From IMG/VR virus record IMGVR_UViG_3300032282_002789: a stretch of DNA of 34,248 nt, one strand, 5' to 3'. This stretch comes from an uncultured virus (IMG/VR IMGVR_UViG_3300032282_002789). Taxonomy: Duplodnaviria; Heunggongvirae; Uroviricota; Caudoviricetes. Positions 1 through 24,001 of this stretch are shown one piece after another. How positions within the stretch are numbered: the first letter of the stretch is position 1; every line of letters begins with the position of its first letter. A model generated the notes under the pieces. It worked only from the letters and a program-made list of their open reading frames with translations. It was not told the DNA's origin and searched no databases. The position numbers and the translations under genes are program-made.

Positions 1-242
1 ACTAAGCACTCTGTTGTTGTGTAATCTTTTCTCCAACCCAAAGGAACTAATTCATCCCAGAATAATTCTTCTGTATATGGTTCTGGGTTTATTTGTTCAT
101 GGTAGTAGTCTTTGTATTGTTTTTGTTTATGTTTTATATACCCTTGATTTAGATCGTTATAAAGATCTACAAACTGTTTGCTATCCATATCCGCCCCTAA
201 CTAACTGACTAACTCTTCCTGGTTGCCAGGTAAGTTAGTTCT

Positions 243-274
243 GAGATAGCCCCACCATTTCTGATGGGGCTTCT
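243..274 (-). terminator. GC-rich stem-loop downstream of the transglycosylase gene
   Basis: gagatAGCCCCA-ccatttc-tgaTGGGGCTtctc inverted repeat just past the 315 stop; no clear U-tract. Confidence 0.45.
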
Positions 275-314
275 CCTATTGCTTTGCTTTACTGTGCTTC
301 TGCTATGGCTTTTG

Positions 315-944
315 CTATTGCTTTGCTTTTACTACAAGGAACTTATCCATTAACTGTTCAGTCTTTGGGGTAATTCCGTGCCAAGCATTCCAATTTTTGC
401 CACCATCACTCATGTAATAAGCGATAGTTGCATTGACCACAGGGTTGAGCAGTTCGGCATTAGATTTTAATCCAAACTTATCTCTACGAGATTGACCTAA
501 CTCTCCAAGCATATTTATTTGGAACATGCCCCACGAGTTATCGCCTGTGTCTATATTTCCATTGTGAGCGAGAGGTCGCCCATTACTTTCTTTCTTAGCG
601 ACTGCCCATGCTTCTTTAAGGTCTTCACCTTTGAAGCCTACGGCTTGTAGCAACTCGACCAATTCAGTATCGGTCAAAGTATTAACATTCTGATACTTTT
701 TCAAAGTTGCTTCTCTCTTTGTTTGTTGAACTATTTGCGCTTCGGCTTTGGTTGGCGCAAAGGCTATGGAAGTTCCAAATGCCATTGAACCAGTTGCTAG
801 GATCAAAATGATCCCACCTACTCCTAGTGCTTTTATTTTTGCTTTGGCTCGGCGGTTTTGCTCTGCCATTACCTTTGCTGATGCTTTTGCTATTGCTTTG
901 GCATCTGCTTCGGCTCTGTTCATTATCTTGTTTTTCATCATCAC
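315..944 (-). CDS. Membrane-anchored or secreted lytic transglycosylase (SLT/lysozyme-like fold)
   Basis: N-terminal hydrophobic segment (LGVGGIILILATGSMAFG), catalytic AKKES motif, GMFQIN motif, C-terminal WNAW; start overlaps the integrase stop. Confidence 0.8.
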   Translation of the reverse strand: MMMKNKIMNRAEADAKAIAKASAKVMAEQNRRAKAKIKALGVGGIILILATGSMAFGTSIAFAPTKAEAQIVQQTKREATLKKYQNVNTLTDTELVELLQAVGFKGEDLKEAWAVAKKESNGRPLAHNGNIDTGDNSWGMFQINMLGELGQSRRDKFGLKSNAELLNPVVNATIAYYMSDGGKNWNAWHGITPKTEQLMDKFLVVKAKQ

Positions 945-2278
945 TCCAAATAGCCATTGGCACTTTCAGATGCCTTTGACTGGTGTGAACGAAGGCGGTG
1001 TAAATACCGCTCTGTCGTCTTGATCGATTGATGCCCTAATCGCTCTTTTACTTCATGAACATCTACGCCGTTCTTTAATAACTGCGTAGCGTTGGCATGT
1101 CGTAAATCGTGAGTTCTAGGAAACCACCCGATTGCGGACTTGGCTATTGCTTTGTTCCAACTTGTTCTCCATACATCACGAGGCATGTGGCTCATATTGT
1201 TGATGAAACTCCCTTGCTCTTGCTTCTGCTGATGCTTCTGCTTTGCCTTACGGCTTCGGCTTCCTACCTGCTTTGCTTCTGCTAGTGCTTCTGCTTGGGC
1301 TTTGGCTTTGCGGTAGTTTCCTACTGCTTGCCTACAACCTTCGCATCTACAACCCCCATGTGTATAGGAGTAAAGAGTTCCATGCTGGAACTGTTTTCCG
1401 CCCTTCTCGAATGGTCGAGAGGGCTTTGCGCCTTGTGAACCTATTATTTTACTTGGAGTTATCAGTATTGTTCTTGGGAACATCAGATCATCTTTTGCTA
1501 TGCCTTTTGCTAGGACATACGCTTTTAGTTGCTGTAATAGGGCTTTACTTATCATTATGCTTCGCTTTTGCCCCGACTTTGTGGCATCTACAACTAGAAA
1601 TCTCTCGCCTTTGTTATACGCTTTGCCTAGATCACTAACTCGCCTTTGAATAAATATCTCGCCAGTTTTGAAGTTAATGTCTTTTGCTCTTACTTCTGTG
1701 GCTTCCCCATAGCGACACCCACTTGCTACTAGGAACTGGGCAAATAACTTTGCCCCTTCGGTTGGTAGGTGCTTTACAATCTCCTTGAACTCGTCAGGCT
1801 CTAATACATTGGAAATATCGGCATGATTAAGTTTGATCTTAATTCCATGAGTAGGATTAATTTCCACTTTTCCAGCACTAACTAACTTAGAAAACATAGA
1901 GCCAAGAGAGGCTTTAACTTGATTGAGCGTTGCGGGCTTAACGCCACTTAGTTTTAGATCATCAATTAACTTCACTAAGTCTGAAGGCTTCAGGGAAGTT
2001 AGTTCTCGATCTCCTATTGCTGGAATTACAAATCTAGTTAAAACCGATTTATAGCCCTTCTTTGTGATCGGCATGAGATCAGATACCGCCAGCCATTGAT
2101 CTACATAATCGCCCACCTTCAAATTAGCCTTTGAAGGGGTCATAGAGCCATGCTTCTCCCCTTGTATGGCGTGATACATGGCTTCGGTTTCATTAGCCCA
2201 TGTGCCAGCCGATACACGCCGATTTCCAAGCCTGTAATAGCCTGTAAATCTGCCGTTGCGCTTGCTCACATACGCCAT
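941..2278 (-). CDS. int: Tyrosine recombinase/integrase with internal Zn-finger insertion
   Basis: Catalytic set visible: GCRYGE (R), ATKSG (K), HDLRH (HxxR), LGHQS (H), TERYLH (Y); N-terminal arm-binding and SAM-like regions. Confidence 0.93.
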   Translation of the reverse strand: MAYVSKRNGRFTGYYRLGNRRVSAGTWANETEAMYHAIQGEKHGSMTPSKANLKVGDYVDQWLAVSDLMPITKKGYKSVLTRFVIPAIGDRELTSLKPSDLVKLIDDLKLSGVKPATLNQVKASLGSMFSKLVSAGKVEINPTHGIKIKLNHADISNVLEPDEFKEIVKHLPTEGAKLFAQFLVASGCRYGEATEVRAKDINFKTGEIFIQRRVSDLGKAYNKGERFLVVDATKSGQKRSIMISKALLQQLKAYVLAKGIAKDDLMFPRTILITPSKIIGSQGAKPSRPFEKGGKQFQHGTLYSYTHGGCRCEGCRQAVGNYRKAKAQAEALAEAKQVGSRSRKAKQKHQQKQEQGSFINNMSHMPRDVWRTSWNKAIAKSAIGWFPRTHDLRHANATQLLKNGVDVHEVKERLGHQSIKTTERYLHRLRSHQSKASESANGYLE

Positions 2279-2294
2279 ATCAGCCCCCTATGCT

Positions 2295-2340
2295 CTACTG
2301 GCGAGTAATGCTACTGGTGGGTAATGCTACTCGCCAGTAG
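2295..2340. promoter_or_regulatory. Three tandem near-palindromic sites (16-bp period) upstream of int
   Basis: cTACTGGCGAGTAatg cTACTGGTGGGTAatg cTACTCGCCAGTAg; the outer two form a perfect 13-bp inverted repeat. Confidence 0.55.
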
Positions 2341-2350
2341 GTTCTTGGTC

Positions 2351-2387
2351 AAAAAATAACCCCTAATCCAAATTGGGTTAGGGGTTA
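2351..2387 (-). terminator. Intrinsic terminator separating the upstream operon from int
   Basis: Minus strand TAACCCCTAACCCAA-T-TTGGATTAGGGGTTA followed by TTTTTT. Confidence 0.8.
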
Positions 2388-2512
2388 ACTATTAACTACA
2401 TAAAGAATTAGGCGGTCAGGCTTGGAACTAACTCGGTGGAACACCAGATAAGTTAGTCATTGGGAAGTTCTGAGCGTGAACTAACTTTTCTGGAATTAAA
2501 TAAAGTTAGTTC

Positions 2513-3061
2513 CTACCAACTGGCTCGATAAATAAACTCCAACTGATCAGATTGTTCTAGCAAGGTAGTAATTAGATCAATCGTGTATTCCAGTTGCGAG
2601 TAATAGTAATCACCAAGATCATCACTACCAAAGAAAAATCCAGCAGAAGGTTTAAGTGGATTTTCATAAGTATCAACTGTAATTTTTTGATCTAAACTAT
2701 TTAAGTAATCACACAATAAATAAAATACTTTATTGTTTTCAATTTGATATTGGCGATCAGGATTTGCCAAAGCCTTAACACAATCACTACGCAAAGTTTC
2801 TAATTGCTCTCTGCTCAGGTGTATCTCTTGGCACTCATCAACGCCGTCAGCAACATTATTAATGAACCAACCATGAATAGCGTTTGCCTTGCGCCAGTAT
2901 CCAACTAATTGTTTAACAAGGATATTCGCAAAATCAGGAGTTGGTAATTGTTCAAGTCCTGCTATTTTTTTAATATCCTTAAACATATTTGGGTGTTCTT
3001 TATCAAAAGTATCTGATGAACTCACATACTTCTCGGCATACAAATACATATCTAAACCCAT
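2513..3061 (-). CDS. Conserved phage hypothetical protein (MGLDMY...YWRKANAIH...SW type)
   Basis: 182-aa ORF with a motif pattern recurrent in phage proteins; RBS-like AAGGGAG upstream. Confidence 0.75.
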   Translation of the reverse strand: MGLDMYLYAEKYVSSSDTFDKEHPNMFKDIKKIAGLEQLPTPDFANILVKQLVGYWRKANAIHGWFINNVADGVDECQEIHLSREQLETLRSDCVKALANPDRQYQIENNKVFYLLCDYLNSLDQKITVDTYENPLKPSAGFFFGSDDLGDYYYSQLEYTIDLITTLLEQSDQLEFIYRASW

Positions 3062-3222
3062 TAATTGATCTCCCTTACAATATCAATCGCAACATCTAAT
3101 CCCGATATTGCGCCGTCTAACATCATAAAGTCAGAAGTGCCGTCTTGTTCAGCATGGTTCTGCCTTCTACGCCAAGCGTGTTGGAGTTCAGTTAATTCAC
3201 TAATTGCCTGATCTTTAGTCAT
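3061..3222 (-). CDS. Small hypothetical protein (53 aa, MTKDQAISEL...)
   Basis: Hand-translated; fills the gap and is coupled to both neighbours. Confidence 0.65.
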   Translation of the reverse strand: MTKDQAISELTELQHAWRRRQNHAEQDGTSDFMMLDGAISGLDVAIDIVREIN

Positions 3223-3403
3223 TAGTTGTTTCCACTTCTCTAGTTTTTAACCAGTTATTTACTGTTTCTTTTTTCCATAACGGAACTTTGCCGATTTGGT
3301 GATCGGGTTCGGGAAGGGTGTTGCGCTCTCGATACTTGTAGATCGTTCGAACTTTTAACCCTGCTAGTTTTGCTATATCTGTATTTGTTAGCCATTCGCT
3401 CAT
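3215..3403 (-). CDS. AlpA/excisionase-like (MerR-type) HTH DNA-binding protein
   Basis: WLTNTDIAKLAGLKVRTIYKYR...LPEPD..IG..PLW pattern. Confidence 0.8.
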   Translation of the reverse strand: MSEWLTNTDIAKLAGLKVRTIYKYRERNTLPEPDHQIGKVPLWKKETVNNWLKTREVETTND

Positions 3404-3405
3404 GT

Positions 3406-3876
3406 TTATTTAACAACTTTCTTTTTAGTTTCATTAGGTTTAGTTCCCCACTTTGTTGTTTGAGTTTCCGTATCAGCCCATAGATAAGGTAAAAATATAG
3501 GCACATTAAATACATAATAGTTTGGGTCTTTACGCATTAAATTACTTTGATGCGATTGGTGAACTAAATGATCACCAAACCAAAAAGGCAATCCAGTATC
3601 AGGAAAGGTTGGGTGTAGTGCTACGAACTGAGGCAACATGGTGTCCTTGTAGCCACGATCTACCCATTCTTGGCAGATCGCAATTCCATATTCACACAAA
3701 GCCTTCTCATGCCCACGCCACATCTTTGTAGCAGGGTGATTACGCCAGCCCTGACTAACACCCATTAATGCTCGAAGTATTTGCCACGCTTCAACTCGTT
3801 GCTTACCTAATCGCCTGTAATCAAGAGCCTTAGCAGACTTAGTAAAATCAGGATAAGGAATAAATGTATTAACCAT
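3406..3876 (-). CDS. MSMEG_6728-like protein (pyrimidine-dimer DNA glycosylase/T4 endonuclease V-related)
   Basis: TFIPYPDF..SA..LD.RRLGKQRVEAWQIL, GWRNHPATKMWRG, HQSHQSNLMRKDP motifs. Confidence 0.85.
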   Translation of the reverse strand: MVNTFIPYPDFTKSAKALDYRRLGKQRVEAWQILRALMGVSQGWRNHPATKMWRGHEKALCEYGIAICQEWVDRGYKDTMLPQFVALHPTFPDTGLPFWFGDHLVHQSHQSNLMRKDPNYYVFNVPIFLPYLWADTETQTTKWGTKPNETKKKVVK

Positions 3877-4015
3877 TATTTACTTCTGACGATAATTTGA
3901 ACTCACTTGGATTACACCATTTACATATATTAAGAGTTAGTTCCATATCACTATCAAAAGTTGTTAACCAAGTTTTTGTATTTATTGGTTCATAACATAG
4001 ATCGCATTTAACCAT
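3869..4015 (-). CDS. Small CxxC...CxxC zinc-finger protein
   Basis: MVKCDLC...ICKWC; start placed at the ATG overlapping the WhiB 3' end, with GGAG upstream. Confidence 0.55.
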   Translation of the reverse strand: MVKCDLCYEPINTKTWLTTFDSDMELTLNICKWCNPSEFKLSSEVNNG

Positions 4016-4304
4016 TGATACCACTCCTATATTGTTTTCGAAGCAAACTGGCTCGTTCAACTTCGGTTAATCCACCCCATATTCCATATCTAACTCTGTT
4101 GCTTAATGCGAAAGACAAACACTTATTTTTAATTTCGGTGTCGCAATTACCACAAAGAGTTTTGGCTTTTGTAATACCAGCATTATCAGTTGGATCAGGA
4201 AAAAAGATTTCAGGGTCAACTGTTTGGCATGGCGCATCATCAATATCCTGTGGAGTTGGAGTATCGAGTTCAACTGGTTTAATTACTTTTCGGGCTTTAG
4301 TCAT
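4008..4304 (-). CDS. whiB: WhiB-family Fe-S transcription factor
   Basis: C..DPEIFF, AKTLCGNC, CLSFAL, YGIWGGLT..ER; likely start MTKARK at 4304 with AAGGAG upstream. Confidence 0.92.
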   Translation of the reverse strand: MTKARKVIKPVELDTPTPQDIDDAPCQTVDPEIFFPDPTDNAGITKAKTLCGNCDTEIKNKCLSFALSNRVRYGIWGGLTEVERASLLRKQYRSGING

Positions 4305-4611
4305 TTTCTTGATCTCCTTTGTTTTTAACATGATCAACATACTGTTCCATTACTGTAATTAGATCAGCAGGGTCTAAATTAGCCAACTTTAATAGCACTT
4401 CAATCATGTGTAGTAAGCCCCATACCAACATTTCAGGTTCAATATCTTGATCAGCAATTAAAGTGTTTAAGTGTTCATTGGCTAAATGTTCTTTAATTTC
4501 TTGGGGCAAACTATCTTTACGATCTTGGTCAACCTTAAATCCACGAACAATTTTAATAAACTCATTCGCAAAATTAATAGATTTAATTAAATCCGATTGT
4601 TCTTGGTTCAT
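4297..4611 (-). CDS. Hypothetical protein
   Basis: 104-aa ORF, AAGGAG RBS, overlaps both neighbours. Confidence 0.7.
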   Translation of the reverse strand: MNQEQSDLIKSINFANEFIKIVRGFKVDQDRKDSLPQEIKEHLANEHLNTLIADQDIEPEMLVWGLLHMIEVLLKLANLDPADLITVMEQYVDHVKNKGDQEND

Positions 4612-4955
4612 TTTTTCTCCTTCATAATTAATTCATTTAAGTAATCGTATTTGGGAAATCCATTGTTATTTTGATGCCCAGTATCATTACCGCAATCAAC
4701 GCATTGACCCAATACTGGAACTTTACAACCGCACTCACAATTACATTCAGGTTCGGTTTCAAACACTTCATCAAACAAACTTTCATCAAGTAGATCATCA
4801 AACATTTTATTCTCCTTTAGTTGTTTTAGATATTCCGCTTCTATCTTTCTAATTTGTATTCTTGAAGTTCCAAACATACGAGCAACTTCTGATAAAGATT
4901 TTTGATACGCAACTCTTTGGTGAACTATCTTTTTCTTTTCATTTTCATTAATCAT
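4608..4955 (-). CDS. HTH (sigma region-4-like) plus Cys-rich domain; possibly two fused genes
   Basis: KSLSEVARMFGTSRIQIRKIE HTH; C-terminal CNCECGC...CVDCG; internal AAGGAG-N6-ATG at 4805. Confidence 0.6.
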   Translation of the reverse strand: MINENEKKKIVHQRVAYQKSLSEVARMFGTSRIQIRKIEAEYLKQLKENKMFDDLLDESLFDEVFETEPECNCECGCKVPVLGQCVDCGNDTGHQNNNGFPKYDYLNELIMKEKK

Positions 4956-4978
4956 TACTTACTCCATTTCTGTTAGGA

Positions 4979-5118
4979 GTTGAATAGGCGCAGATACGGC
5001 TCGTTTTATTATCCAAAGCAATTAAGGATATTAAAAGTCTTGACCGCCCTTCACAAGCGAAAGGAGTGGGGAATGAAAACGGAAACCCCGACAAATCTTG
5101 TGTTAACGCCTACCCAAC
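4979..5118 (-). ncRNA. Candidate structured intergenic RNA (about 140 nt)
   Basis: Closing stem GUUGGGUAGGCG/CGCCUAUUCAAC with G-U pairs on the minus strand; inner CACAAG/CUUGUG, GGGG/CCCC and UAUCC/GGAUA stems. Confidence 0.5.
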
Positions 5119-5127
5119 AATTTTAAG

Positions 5128-5304
5128 TTATCGAGAGAGTGATCTCTTTTGTGCTTCTACGCAGTTATAGCAAAACCAAAGAATATCCTGAGAATAATTA
5201 TCAGTAATTGTTTTGCCATTTTCTCTAACGCCTTGTTGACCGCATTGATCACAAGTATCTAATTCGTGATCATTAACTCGTCTAACAATTTCTACATAAC
5301 CCAT
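5128..5304 (-). CDS. Small zinc-finger protein (58 aa)
   Basis: Hand-translated MGYVEIVRR...CDQCG...WFCYNC. Confidence 0.7.
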   Translation of the reverse strand: MGYVEIVRRVNDHELDTCDQCGQQGVRENGKTITDNYSQDILWFCYNCVEAQKRSLSR

Positions 5305-5463
5305 TTATTTACCCCCAAAAAAACATTGATCAATAGTTCCCCAACAATAATGATTTCCCACCCAACTAATGTGAGTTGATAAATAATAAATCCCAATTAC
5401 TATCGCACTCCAAAATAAAATGCGAACCGCAGTTCGGATTTTGTAATAGGTTTTTGATCTCAT
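5305..5463 (-). CDS. Small membrane protein (52 aa)
   Basis: Hand-translated MRSKTYYKIRTAVRILFWSAIVIGIYYL...; GAAAGGAG RBS. Confidence 0.7.
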   Translation of the reverse strand: MRSKTYYKIRTAVRILFWSAIVIGIYYLSTHISWVGNHYCWGTIDQCFFGGK

Positions 5464-6075
5464 TTATTTACTCCTTTCTAAATGTAGTTGGTATCTCCAA
5501 CTATTTTGTTCTTGATGAGTTTTAATTCTGTGGCAACTGGAACACCTAACAACACACTTCTTTATTTCTGATTTAATTTTTGTAGAAAGAAGTTTGCTAC
5601 CAAGCGCAGTTCCGATATTAAACTTTTTACTATGTAAATGATCAAACTCTAAAGCCAGCACATTATTTTCACCACAATCAATACAAGGATTTTGTAATAA
5701 ATAATTAAATACAAACTCTCTTACTTCTTTGTGGTTAGTCCTGTGTTTTTCCGCTTGTCTAATAGACACACAAGGCTTACAAGCCCCTTCATAACCTTTA
5801 TTACCGCTTGCGTGAGTTTTAGGTTGAAAGCGTGATAGTAATTTGATTTTGCGACAATAACCACAACGCTTTCTACCCTTAGCAAGTAAGTTTAATTTTT
5901 CTGCTTTGCGCTTTGCTGAACCCTTACGCATTAAGGCAAAGCAAGATTTACACCTTGCCCTAACTTTGTATTGTCCGTCTAAGTGTTTATTAAACCGACT
6001 AAGTGGTAAAGCAGTAAGGCAACCAATACAAACTTTAGTTCGTTTTGATTTAGTTATGGATTTGTTGGTAGCCAC
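5464..6075 (-). CDS. HNH-type endonuclease with N-terminal zinc fingers
   Basis: Two CxxC..CxxC fingers, then CIDCG...LEFDH...KCVVRCSSCHR. Confidence 0.8.
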   Translation of the reverse strand: MATNKSITKSKRTKVCIGCLTALPLSRFNKHLDGQYKVRARCKSCFALMRKGSAKRKAEKLNLLAKGRKRCGYCRKIKLLSRFQPKTHASGNKGYEGACKPCVSIRQAEKHRTNHKEVREFVFNYLLQNPCIDCGENNVLALEFDHLHSKKFNIGTALGSKLLSTKIKSEIKKCVVRCSSCHRIKTHQEQNSWRYQLHLERSK

Positions 6076-6788
6076 AAACTATCCAATCTAAGTGTTTTAT
6101 ATTTAAGATCATTATGGTTTGACGGAGTTAAATACCCAACATTAAATCGGCTACCAGTTGTAGATACGATCTTGCCTTTACGCAAACGCCCATGCGCCTG
6201 AATAAACACCTGATCACCAACATTAATGTTGTAAGGATTTTTTGTATCGTATGAACCAATCCGTTCATCAGCAATAGAAATTAATTCATCTCTCACATCT
6301 ACAATTTGTGAAAGTAAATCTAATTTCTTTTTACATTTTTTAATTGCTTTATTTGGGTCAGTATCACCGCCATACATATAAAGCGTGGCAAGTTCACCTA
6401 ACCAATTTAAGTGTTGTTGGGCATCTCCAACGCCACCAATTTCGTAAGCAATACTTTCGTAATAAACAAATGATCTAACATCTTTCATGTGTCCACCAAT
6501 TTCATCATCAGCCAAATAACTATCGGTTGTGTTTCCCTTTAAGTCCAAAACTGTTCTGAACTCATAGTTAAATCCAATAGTTATTAATTGAAAACTTTTG
6601 TAGATTTGTTCATCAAAAGTTATATCAACTAACTTAGATTGAGTTAATACATCAAACCTATTGCGAGTATGTGGTTGCCAAATGTGATTGCTGGTATCCC
6701 CAACACTCCAATAGCCGTCTTTATTATTGAACTTAGTTTTTAATCGTTCAAGATAAAAACTATCTTTAGTAGTTGTTTGTGTAGTCAT
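6054..6788 (-). CDS. Hypothetical protein with a possible C-terminal SH3/KOW-like domain
   Basis: 244-aa ORF; INVGDQVFIQAHGRLRKGKIV. Confidence 0.7.
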   Translation of the reverse strand: MTTQTTTKDSFYLERLKTKFNNKDGYWSVGDTSNHIWQPHTRNRFDVLTQSKLVDITFDEQIYKSFQLITIGFNYEFRTVLDLKGNTTDSYLADDEIGGHMKDVRSFVYYESIAYEIGGVGDAQQHLNWLGELATLYMYGGDTDPNKAIKKCKKKLDLLSQIVDVRDELISIADERIGSYDTKNPYNINVGDQVFIQAHGRLRKGKIVSTTGSRFNVGYLTPSNHNDLKYKTLRLDSLWLPTNP

Positions 6789-7408
6789 TAACCCACCAAA
6801 TCTTTCGCTTCAAGAACTTTCTCGATTAATATGCTCATAGTTTTGAGATCAATACTCATCTCTGAAACTTCAATGTAGTTATCTCCAACTCGGCGATTGC
6901 GTTGATCAACTGTTATGTGATTAACACGATCACCAATAATTGTTTTAAGAGATGCGATTAGAGAAGCAGAAACTCTTTCGTGATATTCCTTTGCTTCACG
7001 CTGTTTGCGTTCACGCTCTTTCTGTTCTGCTTCTTGCTTTTGGCGTTCCAGTAATTCTTGTTGTTCTCTTTGCGCCCACTTTGGTTCAAGAGTTGCGTAT
7101 TCAGCAACAATGTCTTGTGGTCTAGCCAACCAAAAGATAGTTGTTGATGCTTGTCCTGATTGAATGTAATCATCTGAACAAACTAAATAACCAACATTAC
7201 GAGAACCTTTATTTGCTGGCGCAAAGTTTTGATCATCTTTTTTATCTGATCTATAAACTTTGTATTCATATTTATCAGTTGATACAAGAGTTGCGTTAGC
7301 AACATGATTGCGTTGAACACGATCAGGATTTTTCTTATCGCTTGATGAATAATCCCATGCTGGAATTACGCCATATTTAGTTCCTATTTTTAGTTCTGCG
7401 GATTTCAT
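6788..7408 (-). CDS. Hypothetical protein with coiled coil
   Basis: 206-aa ORF, AAGGAG RBS, E/R/Q-rich helix. Confidence 0.75.
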   Translation of the reverse strand: MKSAELKIGTKYGVIPAWDYSSSDKKNPDRVQRNHVANATLVSTDKYEYKVYRSDKKDDQNFAPANKGSRNVGYLVCSDDYIQSGQASTTIFWLARPQDIVAEYATLEPKWAQREQQELLERQKQEAEQKERERKQREAKEYHERVSASLIASLKTIIGDRVNHITVDQRNRRVGDNYIEVSEMSIDLKTMSILIEKVLEAKDLVG

Positions 7409-7432
7409 TTATTTATTCTCCTTAGTTAGAAG

Positions 7433-7464
7433 GGTGGAACATAGCCCCCCGACCATGTTCCACC
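7433..7464 (-). terminator. Stem-loop after the VWA gene (terminator or processing site)
   Basis: GGTGGAACAT...ATGTTCCACC perfect 10-bp stem. Confidence 0.5.
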
Positions 7465-7475
7465 ACATTTGTTTG

Positions 7476-9356
7476 TTATGCGTTAACTAATCGCCGACTA
7501 ATCGCATACTTCACGATTGATTTAGCCATGCTAATTAAGTTAAGGGGATTATTTACAACCGCACCAATTTCGCAATAGTGCGATTTTTCTTGATCAAGTT
7601 TTACAATCTCATCTTGATCAGCAATATACGCAAAAGCAGTTAATACACCAGCATTACCTAGTTTCTTAATTGCTTCGTTATTTTCTTTAACGGAATAATG
7701 TTCCCACTCTCCGTCAGTAATAGCAAAGAAAATACGAACTGGTTTTTCAGTTTCAGCAAGTATTTTAGTTGCGTAAGTAATTGCTTCGGTTGGATTAGTT
7801 CCACCCTGAGAGCCAGCATTACGGATTACACCAGTTGCTTTTTCATCAGCACGATACAAAACATTTGTAGTTGTGTTGAATGTAATTACTGTGGTGTTTG
7901 CGTTAATGCGATCTAATGCTCTTTTAATCGCATACATAGCCCGATAAGCAGAAGTTTCTTTACTGCCACTCATTGAACCTGAATTGTCTAAAAGGATTAC
8001 GCACTCGATCTCTGTGGCATCATCTTGTCCTTCTGACCATTGATCGAAAATCGTATCTAAATCATCACCACGCATATATCTATGCGCCTGTAAGCGACCT
8101 TGTGATTGGTATTTATTCCAAGCAGGGTCAAAGGTTGCTTTTAATCTTTCCAACTCTCTACTAAAAGATAGAGATGCTTGGAAAGTTTTAGCATCAGGAT
8201 TTTGATTTTGATACCGAGATTTATGTGGCTCTTTAGAATTATTAGTAGCAAGAGAAGGTAAGCCACCAATTTGTCTAATGATGTCGTTGATCTCGTCAGC
8301 AATCTGTTGGTTATCTAATATGTTATTTAACATATCAGATAAAGCAGATTGATTATCAGGAGTTTCATTACCAGCAGTTTTACCATTACCAGTATTTTTA
8401 TTTTGATTAGTTAAATCAATTTCAATTACTGGTTGTGATTTTAATTGTTCTGCCAATTTAGCATCATCTTTAATAGGTTTTGTTTTAGCCCTATCACGAT
8501 CACGCTTTTGTTGAATTGGTGGAACTGGGCGAGATGTTGATGAACTCTCTATACCTTCATGCGGTCTATCACCATGACCGAATGGAGATTTAATTGAGAT
8601 CATAACTTTCTTGCCACCATTACCAAGTAAATCTTTTTCCCAATCCGCTAATCCGTCTTGGGAAACTTCTTGTTTTGGCATTAACGCATCAAATCGTTTG
8701 ATTAAATCTTTTGCTAATTCAGTATCATCAGGAAAAATTAATACACGATACTGGTCAACAATTTCGCAGATTTCATCTAATTGATCTTGGAACTTATATG
8801 CGTTGCGTGATCGTGCCAACAATTCAGTTGGTAGATATTGCCGACCACGCAATAAGCCATACGAAGTTTCAAATGCTTTTGGGTCATCAACAAAGTGAAT
8901 AAGAATTGTTGATGTGAACCAATCAATCGTTGACGGATAACGAGTTGTAAATAAAGTTTCAATTCGCTGATCGTCTAACGCATTGTAAGCAAATAAATAA
9001 TCATTATCTCTACACCATTCAAAGATTTCAGAACCTTCTCTTGGTGTATAAAGAATGTGGCTAACTTCGTGTAAATCAAGACCACGCAATCCAGCAATTT
9101 CTTTTGCTGTATTTAAGTTGCCAAGTAATCGAGAGTTAAAACAAACATGACTAGCACCTGACCAAGCAGGTGCGTTTATGTCGGCATGTTCAACTTTAAC
9201 TTCTACCTTACGAAGTGTTAATGCGGAATTAACTCTGCCAAAGAACTGAGTAAATCGTTCAATCCTTTGGCGTTTAATTTCCGCTTCTTGTTTCTGTTTA
9301 TTTTTTAGATCAGATTGGGCTAAAGCCGTATCTAAATCTAAGAATGGATAATCCAT
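7476..9356 (-). CDS. VWA-domain protein with N-terminal HExxH metallopeptidase-like region (CobT-like partner of MoxR ATPase)
   Basis: LHEVSH; MIDAS ILLDNSGSM, GGT, AITDG. Confidence 0.88.
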   Translation of the reverse strand: MDYPFLDLDTALAQSDLKNKQKQEAEIKRQRIERFTQFFGRVNSALTLRKVEVKVEHADINAPAWSGASHVCFNSRLLGNLNTAKEIAGLRGLDLHEVSHILYTPREGSEIFEWCRDNDYLFAYNALDDQRIETLFTTRYPSTIDWFTSTILIHFVDDPKAFETSYGLLRGRQYLPTELLARSRNAYKFQDQLDEICEIVDQYRVLIFPDDTELAKDLIKRFDALMPKQEVSQDGLADWEKDLLGNGGKKVMISIKSPFGHGDRPHEGIESSSTSRPVPPIQQKRDRDRAKTKPIKDDAKLAEQLKSQPVIEIDLTNQNKNTGNGKTAGNETPDNQSALSDMLNNILDNQQIADEINDIIRQIGGLPSLATNNSKEPHKSRYQNQNPDAKTFQASLSFSRELERLKATFDPAWNKYQSQGRLQAHRYMRGDDLDTIFDQWSEGQDDATEIECVILLDNSGSMSGSKETSAYRAMYAIKRALDRINANTTVITFNTTTNVLYRADEKATGVIRNAGSQGGTNPTEAITYATKILAETEKPVRIFFAITDGEWEHYSVKENNEAIKKLGNAGVLTAFAYIADQDEIVKLDQEKSHYCEIGAVVNNPLNLISMAKSIVKYAISRRLVNA

Positions 9357-9370
9357 TTATTTATTCCTAA

Positions 9371-10234
9371 CTAAGCGTTAACTGTTTCAAGTAATCCGAG
9401 ATCGGATTTGATGTTGTATTCGCTACCTTCTAGCAACATACGAACTGCTGGCTTCTCATCATCAGCAAAGTTATTAACAAACACTTCACTAGCAAACTCA
9501 TAAGAAAGACCCTTAGCAAGTTTCTCGAATGTTTTTAAGATACGAGTTGATACTGGGGTTTCAAATATAGTTGACGGATTAGAAGCATCATTAACACGAA
9601 GCGTTGAACGCATACCATTAGCAAGTTCTAGTAATGAACTTGAACTAAGGATTTGTTTTTCAATCTTTGTGTCGTAGTTGTAAGTTAACTTAATTGCGAA
9701 GCGATCTTTCCACGCTTCATTAAGTAATTGAGTTCCACGATAATTAGGGTTCATATCAGCAACCACTAATAAATCAGGGTGAGCATGGATAACTTCGTTG
9801 TCGTGGCTCATCAATGTAATTGATCGGCGATCATCTAACAAACTCATTAGATATTGTGAAAGGTTCTTTGGTGCGTTATTTAATTCGTTAATTAATAACA
9901 CGCCACCTTCACGAACGATCTTTGTAATTGCGCCGTCAATCCACTTTAACTCGCCGTTGCTATCAGGAAATAGACCGCCAGTTAATTGTGTGAAATCAAG
10001 TGCGTTATTAGAAGGAACGGCAAAGAAGTTCATTTTGCGTTTTGATGCGTAAGCCATAGCGGAAGTTGTTTTACCAGTTCCAGCATCACCTTCAATTAAC
10101 ACATTCATTTTGTTTTCAAGTGAATAGTCATACATTTGAGTTTCGGTAATACCGCCACCGAAAGATCGTTCAATGTAATGCCCAGTTTGTTCCAGCGAAG
10201 GAACAAAGAAGGATTTGTTATTTGTTGTAGTCAT
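9371..10234 (-). CDS. MoxR/CbbQ/NorQ-type AAA+ ATPase
   Basis: Walker A GDAGTGKT, degenerate Walker B LLINELN, MNP.YRGT..LNEAWKDRF. Confidence 0.9.
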   Translation of the reverse strand: MTTTNNKSFFVPSLEQTGHYIERSFGGGITETQMYDYSLENKMNVLIEGDAGTGKTTSAMAYASKRKMNFFAVPSNNALDFTQLTGGLFPDSNGELKWIDGAITKIVREGGVLLINELNNAPKNLSQYLMSLLDDRRSITLMSHDNEVIHAHPDLLVVADMNPNYRGTQLLNEAWKDRFAIKLTYNYDTKIEKQILSSSSLLELANGMRSTLRVNDASNPSTIFETPVSTRILKTFEKLAKGLSYEFASEVFVNNFADDEKPAVRMLLEGSEYNIKSDLGLLETVNA

Positions 10235-10285
10235 TTTGTTTTCCGTTTCTGTTTGTTAGTTGGTTTGTATTACTGGGGAATTGAA

Positions 10286-10463
10286 TTGTGTTAGCAATAA
10301 CGGAATAAAGACGATCTCTTTATCTATTATGGATTTCTTTATAGTTGAATTGGCTAATCTGTTGTCGTTCATAAATGAAGGAACAAAACGCAAATGATTA
10401 ATAGCAACCATTTGATTTTCAGAAAACTGCCCAAAACTATTTAATCGGCTATTGCTAACACAA
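10286..10463 (-). ncRNA. Candidate structured RNA/leader upstream of the AAA+ gene (about 180 nt)
   Basis: Perfect 14-bp terminal inverted repeat TTGTGTTAGCAATA/TATTGCTAACACAA enclosing further hairpins. Confidence 0.5.
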
Positions 10464-10469
10464 ACTTAT

Positions 10470-10754
10470 TTATTTGTATTCAGGTATTTCCACTTCGGGG
10501 TGTTTTTCAATAATTGATGAAGCAAGTAAAACATCATCAAGTTGGTCGTCAACCAATTCAATGAACGCTTTTTGTTCAGCCACTTTTTCATCAAGAATAA
10601 TCTCGACCTGATTGAATAGAGGAATTGCCATTTCAATAAAGAACTCAGGTGCTTCAAGTTCTTTCATTTTTATTATTAGAGTTTTTAATGATGTATGTAA
10701 TAACCCAACTTCATCAAAAGTTAGATCATTAATGATCATTTTTTTGTTTTCCAT
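10470..10754 (-). CDS. Hypothetical acidic protein
   Basis: 94-aa ORF, AAAGGA RBS. Confidence 0.65.
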   Translation of the reverse strand: MENKKMIINDLTFDEVGLLHTSLKTLIIKMKELEAPEFFIEMAIPLFNQVEIILDEKVAEQKAFIELVDDQLDDVLLASSIIEKHPEVEIPEYK

Positions 10755-10937
10755 TTATTTTAGTCCTTTGACTATTTTGTTGATGTTTAATTCTTTCAAA
10801 ACACCAAGAGTGTAATTGTCAGAACTGGTAGAAAAGAACCGAGTTCCGTTAGATAGAACAAGATCAACTAAGTTAATTGAGATCGTTCCAGTAGCAACTA
10901 TCTTTCCGTTTGTATCTATATATGTATTTGTTTTCAT
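10755..10937 (-). CDS. Hypothetical protein, first gene of the leftward operon
   Basis: 60-aa ORF, AAGGA RBS, adjacent to the next gene. Confidence 0.6.
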   Translation of the reverse strand: MKTNTYIDTNGKIVATGTISINLVDLVLSNGTRFFSTSSDNYTLGVLKELNINKIVKGLK

Positions 10938-10990
10938 TACTTATTCCTTATTGTTGGGGGGAAGGAATTGGTTTCTATATTAAGTTGTAT

Positions 10991-11425
10991 TGAATACATT
11001 ATGTATTCACCACTATTACTGATCAAAGATAATTCGCAGATTATTTATTTCTCAGTAATAGCAGAAAACACATACATCAATATATTTATCATATTTATTA
11101 CTAACTAACTTCATAGTGCTTAGATCAGATTGGATACTGTCGGCATTTGTTATTAACAAAACTATCCATGATTAATTAGTAGAAAACATATTGATTATGT
11201 TTGCCTAATTCTCTATGTAATTAATAGTTGATTGATTTGCTATCACCCTAATAAGTTCCCGAAGGATTTAATGACTTATTAAGTTCACTAGAGTTCAATC
11301 TCTATCTAGGCTTTTTTCACTTGAAAATTATTGATCTTTTGCCCCTAGAGGTTTCTAAAAAGATCAAACTTTTATCTCGGTGTGCCTGATCAGATCGTAG
11401 CACTAACTACTACAAGTTGATAATA
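10991..11425 (-). ncRNA. Candidate large structured ncRNA or 5' leader (about 430-480 nt)
   Basis: ORF-free AT-rich segment with at least six local hairpins and a long-range TAGTGCT/AGCACTA pairing; strand inferred from the operon direction. Confidence 0.45.
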
Positions 11426-11619
11426 GGCTCGATCATTCCAGCAGGGGGCAATATGTCCGTTTTGCCCGATTGAGCGTGGAACACGCTGGCTCATGGCAGG
11501 GCGATCAAGCGTGGGGTGGGGTAAAGGGCTGGAACTGGGGGGTAAATGGCTCATAGACCCCTTCTAGCCCCTTTTAGGGCTATTTGAGCGTAAGGGGCTA
11601 ACTGGGGAACTAGGAACTG

Positions 11620-11940
11620 GAACTAACTATTCGAACGCCCGTTCGAACGGGCAAAACTTACTCATGGTGGCGAAAGCGGTGGTGGTGGCGAGTTAGTTGT
11701 GAACTAACTATTTACTCCAGTAAGAAGTTAGTTAGTTAAGTGTGTGCGCCTTGTTTAGATATTAGTTAGTTATGAAGTTATTTAGTTAGTTGGGAAATGC
11801 GCCGAAGTTATTTTTTCCAGTAATGATAAGAGAGAGATATATACATAAGAGAGATAAGAGATAGATGTATTCGATAACCAACCTACCAATAGCCATGTAG
11901 TTAAATGTTTCATTTGATTACATGGGAAGTTAGTTATGTG
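11620..11940. repeat. Cluster of AGTTAGTT/AACTAACT repeats
   Basis: Copies near 11621, 11691, 11702, 11726, 11763, 11783 and 11928. Confidence 0.7.
11631..11646. promoter_or_regulatory. Actinobacterial LexA (SOS) box
   Basis: TCGAAC-GCCC-GTTCGA matches the TCGAAC-N4-GTTCGA consensus exactly. Confidence 0.65.
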
Positions 11941-12337
11941 TGTGCGTGTGATCTAAGTGATTAAGTGATCGTGTGGTCAATGGCTAATGGCTAATGGGAG
12001 ATTAGTTATTACAAGGAGAAAGGCACTAATGATCTGATAACAAGTCCGAGAGTGATCTGTCAGGCTGGTCGTATCCGTATTGCCAGTTTGTTATTTATCG
12101 CAGTAGCCGAAAGTTAATTCGTTATCGTGTCATCAAATTGTCATCAAGCCATGTGGAACACATGGTTATTGAGCGTGTGTTAACACAATCGCACCTGATT
12201 AATAGTCAGGTGGAGTTGTTAACACGATCAAATGAGCCAAGACCCCCCCACCATTAAACGCCAGCGCACAGACGAACCCCCAGGTTGGACACACGGTTGA
12301 CGCTGTAGGAGGGGGGCAGTAGCCGTAAACTGGGCCT

Positions 12338-12586
12338 ATGAGTAACTTAGGACGTCAATTCGATAAGCCAAAGCAAAAGCGCACCATGGCATACTCTTAT
12401 GAAGACCCAGGAGTGACCTACTGCCCTAAATGCCATAAGAACGCTTTAGCAGAACCTAAGAGTAAAACAGGTTTAGAGGGCGAACCAACAATTAAGTACA
12501 ACACTGACTATCAGACAGGTGACCTCGAAGTCTGCACTGGTGGGTGTGGTAAGACTATATTTGGTAAAAAGGGTACCTACGAGTGA
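12338..12586 (+). CDS. Zinc-ribbon protein with N-terminal NLGRQF tag
   Basis: CPKC...CTGGCG; leaderless TAAACT-N6-ATG. Confidence 0.7.
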   Translation: MSNLGRQFDKPKQKRTMAYSYEDPGVTYCPKCHKNALAEPKSKTGLEGEPTIKYNTDYQTGDLEVCTGGCGKTIFGKKGTYE

Positions 12587-12978
12587 GCGCATCAGATCAT
12601 TTAGGCCCTCAGTGGCATCAGTTGGATATGTACCAAACTGCTAAAGCATTGCGTAAATACACCCTTCTTGATGTCGAAGATAAAAAAATTAAGAATAAAA
12701 GGAACCATCGCTCTAACGCTGATGTAGATAATCAGGTTATGGACAAGAAATTAGCCACTTCTAAAAAATCAGGGCTATATGACTCTGTTAAGAGGATCGG
12801 TGTTCAAGATCCCGTCTCTATTGGAGAGGGTCGCTTCCTACCCTATAAAAAGAATACCGTGGCCAATGGTCATCACCGCATTGCAGCAGCCTATAAAATA
12901 AACAAGAATATGATAATCCCTGTGGAGCATATAGGTCTTGAACCATTTAAGGTTAATGGAAAAACGTATAATAGTTAA
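12583..12978 (+). CDS. ParB/sulfiredoxin-like domain protein (HLGPQW tag)
   Basis: LYDSVKRIGVQDPV...NGHHRIAAA...IPV. Confidence 0.75.
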   Translation: MSASDHLGPQWHQLDMYQTAKALRKYTLLDVEDKKIKNKRNHRSNADVDNQVMDKKLATSKKSGLYDSVKRIGVQDPVSIGEGRFLPYKKNTVANGHHRIAAAYKINKNMIIPVEHIGLEPFKVNGKTYNS

Positions 12979-13143
12979 ATGGATTACCAGTCACGCCTAT
13001 TTGATGAGATAAAGACCGTTGCACGTATGCAGATGGCCAAAGAGATCCTTGAGGGTATACAAGAGATAGATGTAAACACATACACCCAGGCCCAGACCAT
13101 TAGTCGGGTTGTTCAAATCGTCGAGGGCGCAAAAGGAATCTAA
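12979..13143 (+). CDS. Small hypothetical protein (54 aa)
   Basis: Hand-translated MDYQSRLFDEIK..., starts directly after the upstream stop. Confidence 0.6.
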   Translation: MDYQSRLFDEIKTVARMQMAKEILEGIQEIDVNTYTQAQTISRVVQIVEGAKGI

Positions 13144-13199
13144 TTCCTTTTACCCTCCTCTCCCATTTAGCCACATCGAAGATGTGGTAGGTTGACTTC

Positions 13200-13346
13200 A
13201 TGGTAGATGAGTGTTTTGGCAAAGAGACGTGTAAGTGCGAGTTTGACTTGGATATGGATGGTCAGGTGACCTGTGTGATGTGCGGTGCCAGAGATACCTT
13301 GACCCCACCGTCTTGGGGAGATACCCCAGTTAGTTTTGAGGAGTAG
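13200..13346 (+). CDS. Small Cys-rich protein (48 aa)
   Basis: Hand-translated MVDECFGKETCKC...CVMCG; TGgTAGGTT-N6-ATG leaderless start. Confidence 0.55.
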   Translation: MVDECFGKETCKCEFDLDMDGQVTCVMCGARDTLTPPSWGDTPVSFEE

Positions 13347-13369
13347 TACAAAGGAGATAGAGTAGGGAT

Positions 13370-14080
13370 ATGACAAAACCTATAACAGTTTATTGGATGT
13401 GTAATGAAGATGAGTCTATTAGGGCAGTCGCACCTGAAAAAGCAAGTAAACGATTTTACTCCCATGATGTTAGAAGTGATGATTCAGGGTCTCTTATAGC
13501 CGTAAACTATTGTCCAGCATCAAATAGAGCATTAAAAAATCTTTACGCTATAAAATCAATTTATGATTATTCTTTTACAATAAAAGGTGATCGTTGCGAA
13601 TCCCCCATGTATGATCAGGTTTTTTTTGACAAGCATGTAGTTATAAGATCAATAGAAAAGAAGGTCTTTAGTTTTAAAAATGTGTATGCTTTTTTTACTG
13701 ATGAAAAGAGCCTAGAGATAACGGCATATGAATACCCCATATTTGAAGACAATGAAGTGGCTAAACGATGTATCCCTATTATGGGTAAATATGATATTGG
13801 GAAATGGTTCCGCCCCTTAGAATTCCCATTTATTTTAAAAGAGGAATTCGACACCTTTACAGTAAAGGAGCAGGATGTTCTTTATTACCTTAGATTTCAT
13901 ACAGATCGTCCCATTATCTTTAAGCAGGTTATGATGACCAATGCTTTAAAGAGCATGTTAGATCACTCAACAGCAGTACACGCTCATAAAACACGTACAT
14001 TTAAGACCCTTGAGAACTTCTACTCTCTTTTTAAAGGAAAAAATTACCTTTTAAAAGAACTTAATAGAAATTTGCTTTAA
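13370..14080 (+). CDS. Hypothetical protein (beta-rich)
   Basis: 236-aa ORF, YCPA and GKYDIGKWFRP motifs; TAGAGT-N6-ATG. Confidence 0.75.
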   Translation: MTKPITVYWMCNEDESIRAVAPEKASKRFYSHDVRSDDSGSLIAVNYCPASNRALKNLYAIKSIYDYSFTIKGDRCESPMYDQVFFDKHVVIRSIEKKVFSFKNVYAFFTDEKSLEITAYEYPIFEDNEVAKRCIPIMGKYDIGKWFRPLEFPFILKEEFDTFTVKEQDVLYYLRFHTDRPIIFKQVMMTNALKSMLDHSTAVHAHKTRTFKTLENFYSLFKGKNYLLKELNRNLL

Positions 14081-14108
14081 TCATAGGTTTAATAGTACGG
14101 TATATCCT

Positions 14109-14249
14109 ATGCGCCTATTTGGATTAGAAATTCGACGTGATGGTAGAATGAAGGAGATGACTGTAGTAACCTGCTACAAGTGTGCCTGTGACTACATGGT
14201 GGCCAAGGAACACCTTCGGGCGTATAACTACTGTCCAAGTTGTAAATAA
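14109..14249 (+). CDS. Small zinc-ribbon protein (46 aa)
   Basis: Hand-translated ...CYKC...CPSC. Confidence 0.55.
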   Translation: MRLFGLEIRRDGRMKEMTVVTCYKCACDYMVAKEHLRAYNYCPSCK

Positions 14250-14261
14250 CTGATCGGAGTA

Positions 14262-14435
14262 ATGATGATATTAAAGACCGACTTCATATCCCTCTTCTGT
14301 GTGACCATAGTTACCATATTTGTTTTGTGGGAATCTCGTCGTAAAGAGTCTCCTGTTTACATCATAATGAAAATTATTGCGGCAGTAATCATTGTTCTCT
14401 GGATAATGGCCTCAATCCTATATTCTCAGCAATAA
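14262..14435 (+). CDS. Small two-helix membrane protein (57 aa)
   Basis: Hand-translated; two hydrophobic stretches; GGAG RBS. Confidence 0.55.
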   Translation: MMILKTDFISLFCVTIVTIFVLWESRRKESPVYIIMKIIAAVIIVLWIMASILYSQQ

Positions 14436-14441
14436 CTAAAT

Positions 14442-14819
14442 ATGCCGTATAAGGACAGGAAGTCCGATAAGGCTAAGGCGACCAGTAAAAAGGCAGGCAA
14501 GAAGTACTATTTGAAAAATAGGGGCGCCCAGTTATTACGTAACAAGACCAAGAAGGATCAGATACGTGATTACATCCGTAAGTACAAAGAACACCGAGGA
14601 TGTATGGATTGCGGAGTTAAGTATCCTTATTACGTACTAGACCTAGATCATCGTGATCCTAATGAGAAGAAGTTCACCCCCGCCATGTTACATAAGACAG
14701 GTAGTTGGGAGAAGATGATCGTAGAGATCAGAAAGTGTGATGTGGTCTGTTCTAACTGCCACAGGCAGCGGACTCATGAGAGAGGTCACTACACTCACTC
14801 TAATGAACACATACTCTAA
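14442..14819 (+). CDS. HNH endonuclease
   Basis: CMDCG...LDLDH...EIRKCDVVCSNCHRQRT; same type as the C-terminus of 5464-6075. Confidence 0.8.
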   Translation: MPYKDRKSDKAKATSKKAGKKYYLKNRGAQLLRNKTKKDQIRDYIRKYKEHRGCMDCGVKYPYYVLDLDHRDPNEKKFTPAMLHKTGSWEKMIVEIRKCDVVCSNCHRQRTHERGHYTHSNEHIL

Positions 14820-14927
14820 GAGGTCTCTCTTGGCTTATGTGGGATCATTGCTGGGAAATTAGATAGGGGCTCATAAAATTTTTGAAACTCAAAGAGTTAG
14901 GCAGTGGCTTATGATAGGGTGGGAAAA

Positions 14928-16625: not shown

Positions 16626-16676
16626 AAATTTCTCAATAGAGCCTCAAGACAGTAGCCATAATGTCACAATACAGTT

Positions 16677-19007: not shown

Positions 19008-19009
19008 AC

Positions 19010-21456: not shown

Positions 21457-21490
21457 ATAAGGTATTCTAGGATTAACTAAGGGAGATGTA

Positions 21491-22231: not shown

Positions 22232-22251
22232 ATCGGACATTTTACCCCTGT

Positions 22252-22289: not shown

Positions 22290-22307
22290 CTACTGAGAGG
22301 GGTGCTC

Positions 22308-23981: not shown

Positions 23982-24001
23982 TATTTAACTACAACTTAAT
24001 A

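Follow-up and report, generated by a model that had tools for sequence, protein, structure and literature searches.

The window analysed here is a stretch of 34,248 nucleotides (nt) of DNA from an uncultured virus of the Caudoviricetes (IMG/VR record IMGVR_UViG_3300032282_002789). Its left part is a tract of 14-15 genes, all on the minus strand here and read inward from a predicted genome terminus, from which a large set of short restriction-type words is missing, and which we call the island; its right part is the start of a rightward gene block that carries TerL (Table). The left edge of the tract (~430-620) lies inside the window, so that what a preliminary description of this DNA had called a left arm is in fact a bounded island of ~11.9 kb. 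The WhiB-like gene of the island, the guanine-plus-cytosine (GC) content of 38-45% and the fact that all 20 matching runs come from lakes or freshwater suggest a host among low-GC freshwater Actinobacteria, and the virus is probably an uncultured freshwater myovirus of such bacteria.

Table. Genes and other features of the window, in order of position (aa, amino acids; pI, isoelectric point; D+E, aspartate plus glutamate).
Feature	Position	Strand	Remarks
Convergent intergenic region, island inner border	185..320	.	two strong hairpins; sites resume leftward from here
SLT_3 lysozyme-like protein, hydrophobic N-terminal segment; last island gene	315..944	-	core, 16/16 lineages tested
Restriction-word-free tract (island)	433..12279	.	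zero GGCC, ACGT, GTAC, TGCA, GCWGC, CCWGG, GANTC; also zero GGATG, CCATC, CASTG, GTCTC, GTNAC, GGWCC, GACGC; one GAAGA, at 622
Tyrosine recombinase (Phage_integrase)	941..2278	-	core gene
182-aa acidic protein, pI 4.5	2513..3061	-	confined to window's own clade
Pyrimidine-dimer DNA glycosylase (Pyr_excise, DenV-like)	3406..3876	-	family match
WhiB-like transcription factor	4008..4340	-	core gene; marker of actinobacterial phages
104-aa acidic protein, pI 4.6	4297..4611	-	
115-aa sigma-70 region-4-like protein	4608..4955	-	
203-aa basic HNH/Lar-like protein	5464..6075	-	core; C-terminal part matches HNH endonuclease PHROGs
Two core proteins without assigned function, 244 aa and 206 aa	6054..7408	-	confident models
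VWA/CobT-like protein	7476..9356	-	core pair with AAA_5 gene
AAA_5 (MoxR/CobS-like) ATPase	9371..10234	-	core pair with VWA gene
Acidic 94-aa protein, second island gene, pI 4.4, 22% D+E	10470..10754	-	not core; without family match
60-aa protein, first island gene	10755..10937	-	
Non-coding leader, ~1.1 kb	10938..12064	.	no open reading frame of at least 60 aa; between predicted repeat and first island gene
Predicted short direct terminal repeat, ~219 bp, and physical ends	12065..12283	.	projected from BRock/LuckySocke motif offsets
Start of ~84-kb rightward block	12284..34248	+	island-specific words at normal density; AGCT, CCGG, CGCG still absent
TerL	32601-34187	+	in rightward block

Word counts are given as left arm (1-12332)/right arm (12333-34248). 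GGCC is missing before 12333 (0/30), and its positions 12333, 12604, 12861, 13035 and 13089, first found by eye, are all exact. GTAC (0/71), GCWGC (0/57) and GANTC (0/66) share the pattern as claimed at that time, as does ACGT (0/59), which is additional to the words then listed; GATC is indeed frequent in both arms (85/75), its excess in the island of the window being mostly codon usage (61 versus 49.7, z 2.7). TGCA and CCWGG had been said to appear only near the far left end, which is so for TGCA (1/121, at 429) and for two of the CCWGG sites (3/29; 218 and 226), but the third CCWGG lies at 12280. The asymmetric or degenerate words GGATG, CCATC, CASTG, GTCTC, GAAGA, GTNAC and GGWCC are gone from the tract alone, and AGCT, CCGG and CGCG are at zero across the whole 34-kb window. 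The change is sharp, but it had been placed at the strand switch, and the edge (12280-12333) lies instead at the distal end of the divergent non-coding region, ~1.4 kb rightward of the start of the last leftward gene and 5 nt short of the first rightward ATG (12338). The 1.4 kb beyond this first gene of the island, that is the leader and the predicted repeat, has no open reading frame (ORF) of at least 60 aa.

The difference between the arms survives correction for composition. Markov backgrounds (base-composition, first-order and maximal-order models) give a left-arm expectation of 15-62 per 4-mer. In 300 synonymous-codon shuffles of 9165 coding nt, which preserve every protein sequence and the codon usage of the arm, mean left-arm counts were 11.9 for GGCC, 22.7 for ACGT, 21.1 for GTAC, 33.1 for TGCA, 20.2 for GANTC and 34.5 for AGCT; the minima for these words were 6-23, never near zero, versus 0-1 observed. 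The right arm is at shuffle expectation for the island-specific words (z -2.7 to +1.0), and for AGCT has 0 observed versus 69.7 expected. A set of 15 motifs has 774 sites in the right arm (35.2 per kb, biggest gap 204 nt), a single site in 433-12279 and none in 623-12279. Among the 4-mers and 5-mers with an expectation of at least 8 in the island, 4 of 133 and 32 of 443 respectively are absent from it, and none from an equal slice of the right arm; the first-transferred DNA of phage T5, put through the same test, lacks no 4-mers and 2 of 429 5-mers. This result for T5, a positive control, indicates that the test is weak where host enzymes recognise 6-mers. The depletion is confirmed as real, and it is stronger than the preliminary description had stated.

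That it should be an artefact, through chimeric assembly or an effect of composition, is a negligible prospect. The window is a metagenomic contig, and many related contigs break near both borders of the island; however, a contig from the probable source sample bridges 8929-20000 at the depth of the island (40.2, versus 38.1 for a contig inside the island), the same junction is spanned in other samples by at least 11 independent contigs, and composition is ruled out by the codon-preserving shuffles.

Islands of this kind recur in relatives. Three complete related genomes (G001, G003 and G004; 95.5, 96.3 and 97.4 kb) have exactly one ~12-kb tract each, which is the only large opposite-strand block of the genome, and their remaining ~84 kb is undepleted. 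We compared 31 related islands, the most distant at 56% ATPase identity, with 15 flanks, counting a word as purged from an island when at most 2 sites were left. GCWGC, CCWGG, GGATG, CASTG and GGWCC, which make up a core word set, are purged in 31 of 31 islands, as is GACGC, and GGCC (29), GGATC (29), CCATC (28) and ACGT (26) in most of them. Other words vary by lineage: GTCTC is purged in 19 islands, GTAC in 15, GAAGA in 13, GANTC in 12, GTNAC in 11 and, more rarely, TGCA in 10, ATAT in 10, GCATC in 7 and ACTGG in 3. Flanks were equally low in none of 15 cases for GCWGC, CCWGG, GGATG, GGCC and ACGT, in one for CASTG and for GGWCC, and in three for GACGC. A further tier of words is avoided genome-wide, namely AGCT (31/31 islands; 15/15 flanks) and CCGG (29/31; 14/15), with CGCG (17/31; 7/15) and GATC (8/31; 4/15) in some lineages.

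Asymmetric words are among those purged, and we take them to be the sites of FokI, BccI, TspRI, BsmAI, MboII, MaeIII, SfaNI, AlwI, BsrI and HgaI; the inclusion of such presumed Type IIS sites points to nucleases, rather than to constraints of DNA structure or coding, as the cause. The islands purged of ATAT (L013-L021, L031, L032, L036 and L038 among them; also G003 and G004, the latter with 0 versus 84 expected) have normal flanks, and we know of no restriction enzyme with the 4-bp site ATAT. Where GATC is unpurged, it is enriched in the islands of L013-L025, L030, L039, L040 and G003/G004 (91-191 per 10.3 kb versus 26-47 per 5.4-7.4 kb of flank); in the same islands unpurged TCGA is also enriched (55-101 versus 11-19 in the flank), and GANTC is up about twofold.

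Relatives that have diverged by ~7-25% (nucleotide, within the island) are still site-free. Random substitution of 2% of the island creates a mean of 27 forbidden sites (minimum 15 in 200 runs), and 10% creates 121; that no sites are present despite such divergence shows that selection against them is ongoing. This bears on the separate origin that the preliminary description had allowed for, in which the island was acquired from a phage that avoids these words genome-wide. The GC content of the island is slightly lower (~0.33-0.44 versus 0.32-0.45 per kb bin, means ~0.37 versus 0.40) and there is a mosaic junction exactly at 12300, as such an acquisition might leave; but orthology and synteny of the block hold across all 31 islands, eight of its genes being core (present in 16 of the 16 lineages tested), the purged sets vary by lineage, sites stay out as the lineages diverge, and no genome-wide purge of these words was seen among the relatives examined. 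We consider a foreign origin very unlikely.

Homology of the window to its relatives stops exactly at 12300-12302. Contigs from another lake join 12300 to 12589 or 12988, which suggests that the first right-arm genes are swappable cassettes, and in other lakes the 13300-17200 stretch recruits a much lower depth than the island. A megablast search found no close phage relatives for either arm.

Where the island lies in the virion DNA can be projected from cultured phages. Judged by TerL, the nearest of these are two Streptomyces myoviruses with 52% identity, BRock (Borockvirus) and LuckySocke. By tblastn, 41 ORFs of G001 match LuckySocke and ~38 are collinear, G001 82.3 to 1.2 kb corresponding to LuckySocke 22.9 to 99.2 kb, with the exception of two adjacent baseplate genes that are swapped and one weak match that is out of order. 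Genes 1-200 of LuckySocke are mostly rightward and genes 201-220 form a ~10-kb leftward block, its only one, which adjoins the right physical end; by this collinearity the island sits exactly where the terminal leftward block sits. Both phages have exact terminal repeats, of 221 bp in BRock and 344 bp in LuckySocke, and the one in BRock was recognised by a sharply bounded doubling of read coverage.

At the outer edge of the island a non-coding element of ~300 nt is kept in 12 lineages and ends abruptly at ~12326. The motif CAGTAGCC begins at nt 37 of the BRock and LuckySocke repeats and has a copy at 12101 in the window, followed by a second CAGTAGCC 60 nt further on (64 nt further in LuckySocke). 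A second motif, CCCCCCNACCNTTAA, is single-copy in the window (12243-12257), G001, G004 and LuckySocke, in the last of which 26 nt separate it from the end of the repeat; the spacing between the motifs is 131-145 nt in the window, G001, G004 and BRock, and an invariant hairpin (CACCTGA..TCAGGTG) lies at 12192-12212. From these offsets we predict a physical genome end at ~12283, where the tract stops. The other physical end of the virion DNA, the left one, would then be the DNA from 12284 onward, and the window would span the joined ends of a linear genome of ~95 kb.

CCCCCCNACCNTTAA was found in 25 of 29 loci searched, and in 25 of these 25 the nearest site of the core word set on the side of the long block is 20-27 nt away. 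The site is a CCWGG, conserved where the repeat is predicted to end (12280-12284 in the window), and CCWGG is a word purged from every island; the site may straddle the cut, lie past it, or form part of what the terminase targets. On the island side of the motif, DNA is site-free for 11.7-14.1 kb in 11 loci, eight loci end before any site, and the remaining six have an earlier site at 300-8,994 nt, in some cases a lone stray site (L039 is a lineage that keeps GGCC). A long terminal repeat in the style of T5 was considered and rejected: the depth given above is flat between the contig inside the island and the border-bridging one, so that the island is not a long terminal repeat, whereas circular assembly and flat depth are compatible with a short one.

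The same borders bear on whether staged entry is needed at all. The whole genome could enter at once, with only cuts in the early operon being fatal and others repaired or tolerated after early functions such as phage RecA and nuclease inhibitors have been made, and it suits this that the tract is one transcription unit with its leader and that the phage encodes RecA. However, exonucleases would reach the operon from a cut 50 nt outside, and a gradient would be expected, but the first 700 nt past the edge already hold 15 sites. Non-coding DNA (1.3 kb) and the predicted repeat also fall within the site-free zone, a lone infecting genome has nothing to serve as a template for repair, and the match with the predicted terminus would be left unexplained; we find simultaneous entry distinctly unlikely.

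At the inner border, the hairpins at 199-270 have a predicted free energy of -45.5 kcal/mol (z -5.5; 0 of 200 shuffles equally stable), and one of them is CCTGG-TTG-CCAGG with inverted copies of the 8-mer AACTAACT on both sides. They are likely the terminator-like end of the island transcription unit. AACTAACT itself has 19 copies in the window versus 1.85 expected; 18 of the 19 are in 199-11935, mostly intergenic and clustered at both borders of the island (clusters at 199-240, 2426-2511 and 11621-11935, nine copies being in the last). In G001, 19 of 30 copies are in or at the island, with clusters at 82703-82825 and 93930-93960. Its role may be that of a promoter, an operator or a stop signal.

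Among the island proteins, the N-terminal part of the HNH/Lar-like protein matches 'Lar-like restriction alleviation protein' (phrog_5558, E 5e-12), and the right arm has a further HNH gene, at 14442-14819, which falls into the PHROG of the island gene (phrog_2255). The right arm upstream of TerL also encodes a carbamoyltransferase, an SNase-like nuclease, a CHAP endolysin and an HslV-like peptidase, and scans of the window for transfer RNAs (tRNAs) and Rfam families found none. The models of the two core proteins without assigned function have predicted local distance difference test (pLDDT) scores of 91 and 88.5. Their sequence homologues are all hypothetical proteins, profile searches of PDB sequences gave a best E of 0.51, and Foldseek returned nothing at E<=0.001. 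The best VIA-align results, to Tudor/SH3/PWWP-like barrels, were Z 7.1 (root-mean-square deviation (rmsd) 2.7, 66 residues aligned) and Z 6.0 (rmsd 5.5, 83 aligned), so that the resemblance of both models is that of generic small beta-barrels, within the background range. A weak Foldseek row for an NTF2/VirB8-like conjugation protein (E 0.013, TM score 0.21) was unconfirmed by structural alignment and was set aside. The acidic product of the second island gene is an Ocr-like candidate by its position only. For the anti-restriction functions that the preliminary description had thought possible in this arm, the leads are limited to the Lar-like match and the small acidic proteins.

Although the tyrosine recombinase is core, scanning 185,579 species genomes twice with the island ATPase (as a single protein and as an alignment) revealed no integrated relative; the pattern-based scan can miss relatives. 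BRock is described as virulent, and no joint lacking the island (an excised form) is among the joints listed. The recombinase might instead circularise the genome via the terminal repeats. G001 has an endonuclease VII gene on the opposite strand within its site-free leader (82271-82642; L128:2271-2642), which looks like a mobile insertion, as its LuckySocke counterpart lies at 22.9 kb.

Published precedents for a restriction-proof leading end come from coliphages and their relatives. Restriction of T5 and BF23 by Type I and Type II systems works only via sites in the first-transferred DNA, and the restriction sensitivity of the T7-like Murciavirus phages is set only by motifs of the leading region (PMC12455610). 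The first-transferred DNA of T5/BF23 is like the island in being a ~10-kb terminal block with pre-early genes, including HNH, in a genome with a deoxynucleoside monophosphate (dNMP) kinase; sites are excluded from it and tolerated elsewhere, and the island too would lie at a physical end of virion DNA if collinearity and the shared repeat motifs are a guide. The anatomy differs. The T5 block is a 10.2-kb terminal repeat, whereas the island is single-copy; T5 has a repeat-rich non-coding injection stop at the inner border, whereas the island has only ~110 nt of non-coding DNA with two hairpins there, and its non-coding region of 1.1-1.4 kb adjoins the terminus. When 15 island proteins were compared by tblastn with positions 1-10219 of T5 in search of A1/A2-like proteins, nothing above noise came up at E<=1. 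E. coli is the host of T5, a siphovirus, whereas the island phage is a myovirus, probably of Actinobacteria, and the depletion here is broader (36 absent 4-/5-mer words versus 2 in the same test). The analogy to T5 drawn in the preliminary description thus holds for the principle of restriction but not for anatomy.

With T7 and Murciavirus, the island phage shares a short repeat (predicted here), a leader, inward-read early genes and a terminator-like structure. In contrast, the T7-like leading region is a few kb and the island 12 kb, no phage RNA polymerase or Ocr homologue was found, DNA beyond the island is transcribed towards it, and the published Murciavirus and T7-like cases concern Type I motifs, whereas the island words are short and Type II/IIS-like. 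BRock and LuckySocke are like the island phage in their genes (41 matching in LuckySocke), in having a long block and a ~10-kb inward-reading block at the right end, and in the shared repeat motifs, but differ in lacking depletion of the terminal block and an AAA_5/VWA pair, in GC content (52-53%), in size (112-115 kb) and in having tRNAs. Their terminal inward-reading blocks (LuckySocke 103401-114564, BRock 1-11000) have a GC content of 0.57 versus 0.52-0.53 elsewhere.

Genome-wide avoidance of sites in phages was surveyed by Rusinov et al. 2018 (PMC6286503, as cited in PMC12455610), and such surveys had left out location, according to PMC12455610. The island phages resemble such cases in that AGCT and CCGG (with CGCG or GATC) are absent throughout, but the main signal here is local. 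The Brevibacterium phage Cantare (90.7 kb) has two GCWGC, six TTAA and no CCWGG, GGWCC or GCSGC, a whole-genome purge that overlaps the core word set of the islands.

Could the words be targets of the phage rather than of its host? Following Davison's A1 hypothesis for T5 (bioRxiv 10.1101/866236), entry would be staged, but the words avoided would be targets of island-encoded nucleases that destroy host DNA at a time when no more than the island has entered. The island has a core HNH-family protein, further HNH, SNase and endonuclease VII genes are present in the genome, and self-avoidance could account for the genome-wide tier (AGCT and CCGG). We nevertheless regard it as unlikely, as more than 20 words are purged in sets that differ among close lineages, such as TGCA (10/31) and GANTC (12/31). 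Many fast-changing phage nucleases would be needed, yet the nuclease gene set is conserved, and the diversity of host restriction-modification systems is a simpler cause.

Modification of the DNA is another way in which ~84 kb could tolerate sites: the bulk of the genome would be base-modified under the direction of the phage and the terminal block would be left unmodified, perhaps as host RNA polymerase needs it so. G001, a myovirus with PolA, DnaB, primase and RecA, also encodes a dNMP kinase (DNMK). Such kinases accompany non-canonical nucleotides in some phages, and genome-wide avoidance of only three or four words would fit enzymes that modification does not block. Against this, no DNA methyltransferase, hydroxymethylase, thymidylate-synthase-like or other modification gene is found among the 121 ORFs of G001 (E<=1e-4), T5 has a dNMP kinase although its DNA is unmodified, and the agreement of the tract edge with the predicted physical end is unexplained. 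Nor do we know of a mechanism that would spare one 12-kb block from modification, and we judge this explanation improbable.

We propose instead, and think it rather probable, that the island is the leading end of a linear genome of ~95 kb and enters the cell before the other ~84 kb. The preliminary description had likewise held that this arm enters first; the terminal location projected from BRock and LuckySocke and the precedent of T5- and T7-like phages favour that claim, and the order of entry itself is something we infer. On this proposal the island end would enter first and alone, for long enough that any site in it would be lethal, and this exposure would lead every lineage to purge the target words of the Type II/IIS enzymes that it meets. 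Host polymerase would transcribe the island inward from the terminus, and the island products would set up a general protection before the ~84 kb arrives or becomes accessible; so shielded, the ~84 kb would keep the same words at normal frequency. The words absent genome-wide (AGCT and CCGG, with CGCG or GATC in some lineages) presumably belong to nucleases that this protection does not cover, or may mark nucleases of the phage itself.

Several observations weigh against staged entry as we propose it. The ends and the entry order are projections, and the motifs behind the projected ends are not uniform: BRock carries CCCCCCNACCNTTAA in a form that is one nt short, and in G003 an exact match is missing. 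Alignment of the whole element at the edge of the window scores 34 with LuckySocke and 29 with BRock versus shuffle maxima of 36 and 35, so that what ties the element to those repeats is a pair of short motifs and the offsets of these. No word depletion is seen in the terminal blocks of LuckySocke and BRock (0 of ~135 4-mers and 0 of ~480 5-mers). The inner border is soft, with five sites in 263-622. Among the 121 ORFs of G001 and the 47 of the window there is no RNA polymerase family; a sigma-70 promoter scan of 1-14000 gave 28 sites versus 44 in shuffles and identified no leader promoter; and family searches and structure comparisons of island and G001 proteins recognised no anti-restriction gene or DNA mimic. 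Finally, the genome-wide avoidance of AGCT and CCGG is left unexplained by the model.

Since the genes next to the island face it and no phage polymerase was found, transcription cannot be what brings in the rest of the genome, and this implies a step encoded by the island. A more specific and frankly speculative form of our proposal, which we put forward as a possibility rather than an expectation, is that the island acts as a 'beachhead'. It would enter alone by host transcription up to the hairpins, and its core products would then, with an almost universal shield against nucleases in place, import and circularise the other 84 kb. These products might be a membrane-anchored lytic transglycosylase, the AAA+/VWA pair, the two core proteins without assigned function and the recombinase, which would perhaps act on the repeat motifs. 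If this were true, the list of purged words in each lineage would be a readout of the restriction enzymes of uncultured freshwater Actinobacteria, and the same sequence-only signature could expose staged entry in any uncultured phage.

In open-access text and preprints, where the accounts found concern only T5, BF23, T7-like phages and genome-wide surveys, we found no earlier description of the island in this group, and a report elsewhere is possible. A restriction-proof leading end with staged entry has been shown by experiment only in a few model coliphages and their relatives; if our proposal is true, abundant uncultured freshwater myoviruses use the same principle with a different anatomy. 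The signal can be read from sequence alone and would be a marker of genome polarity and physical ends in metagenomic phages, whereas surveys of genome-wide avoidance that ignore location can miss the strongest selection. The core early genes without assigned function would be candidates for shielding DNA broadly against nucleases or for importing it, and the purged words of each lineage would amount to a catalogue of the restriction specificities that these phages meet in nature, including their fast turnover between close lineages.

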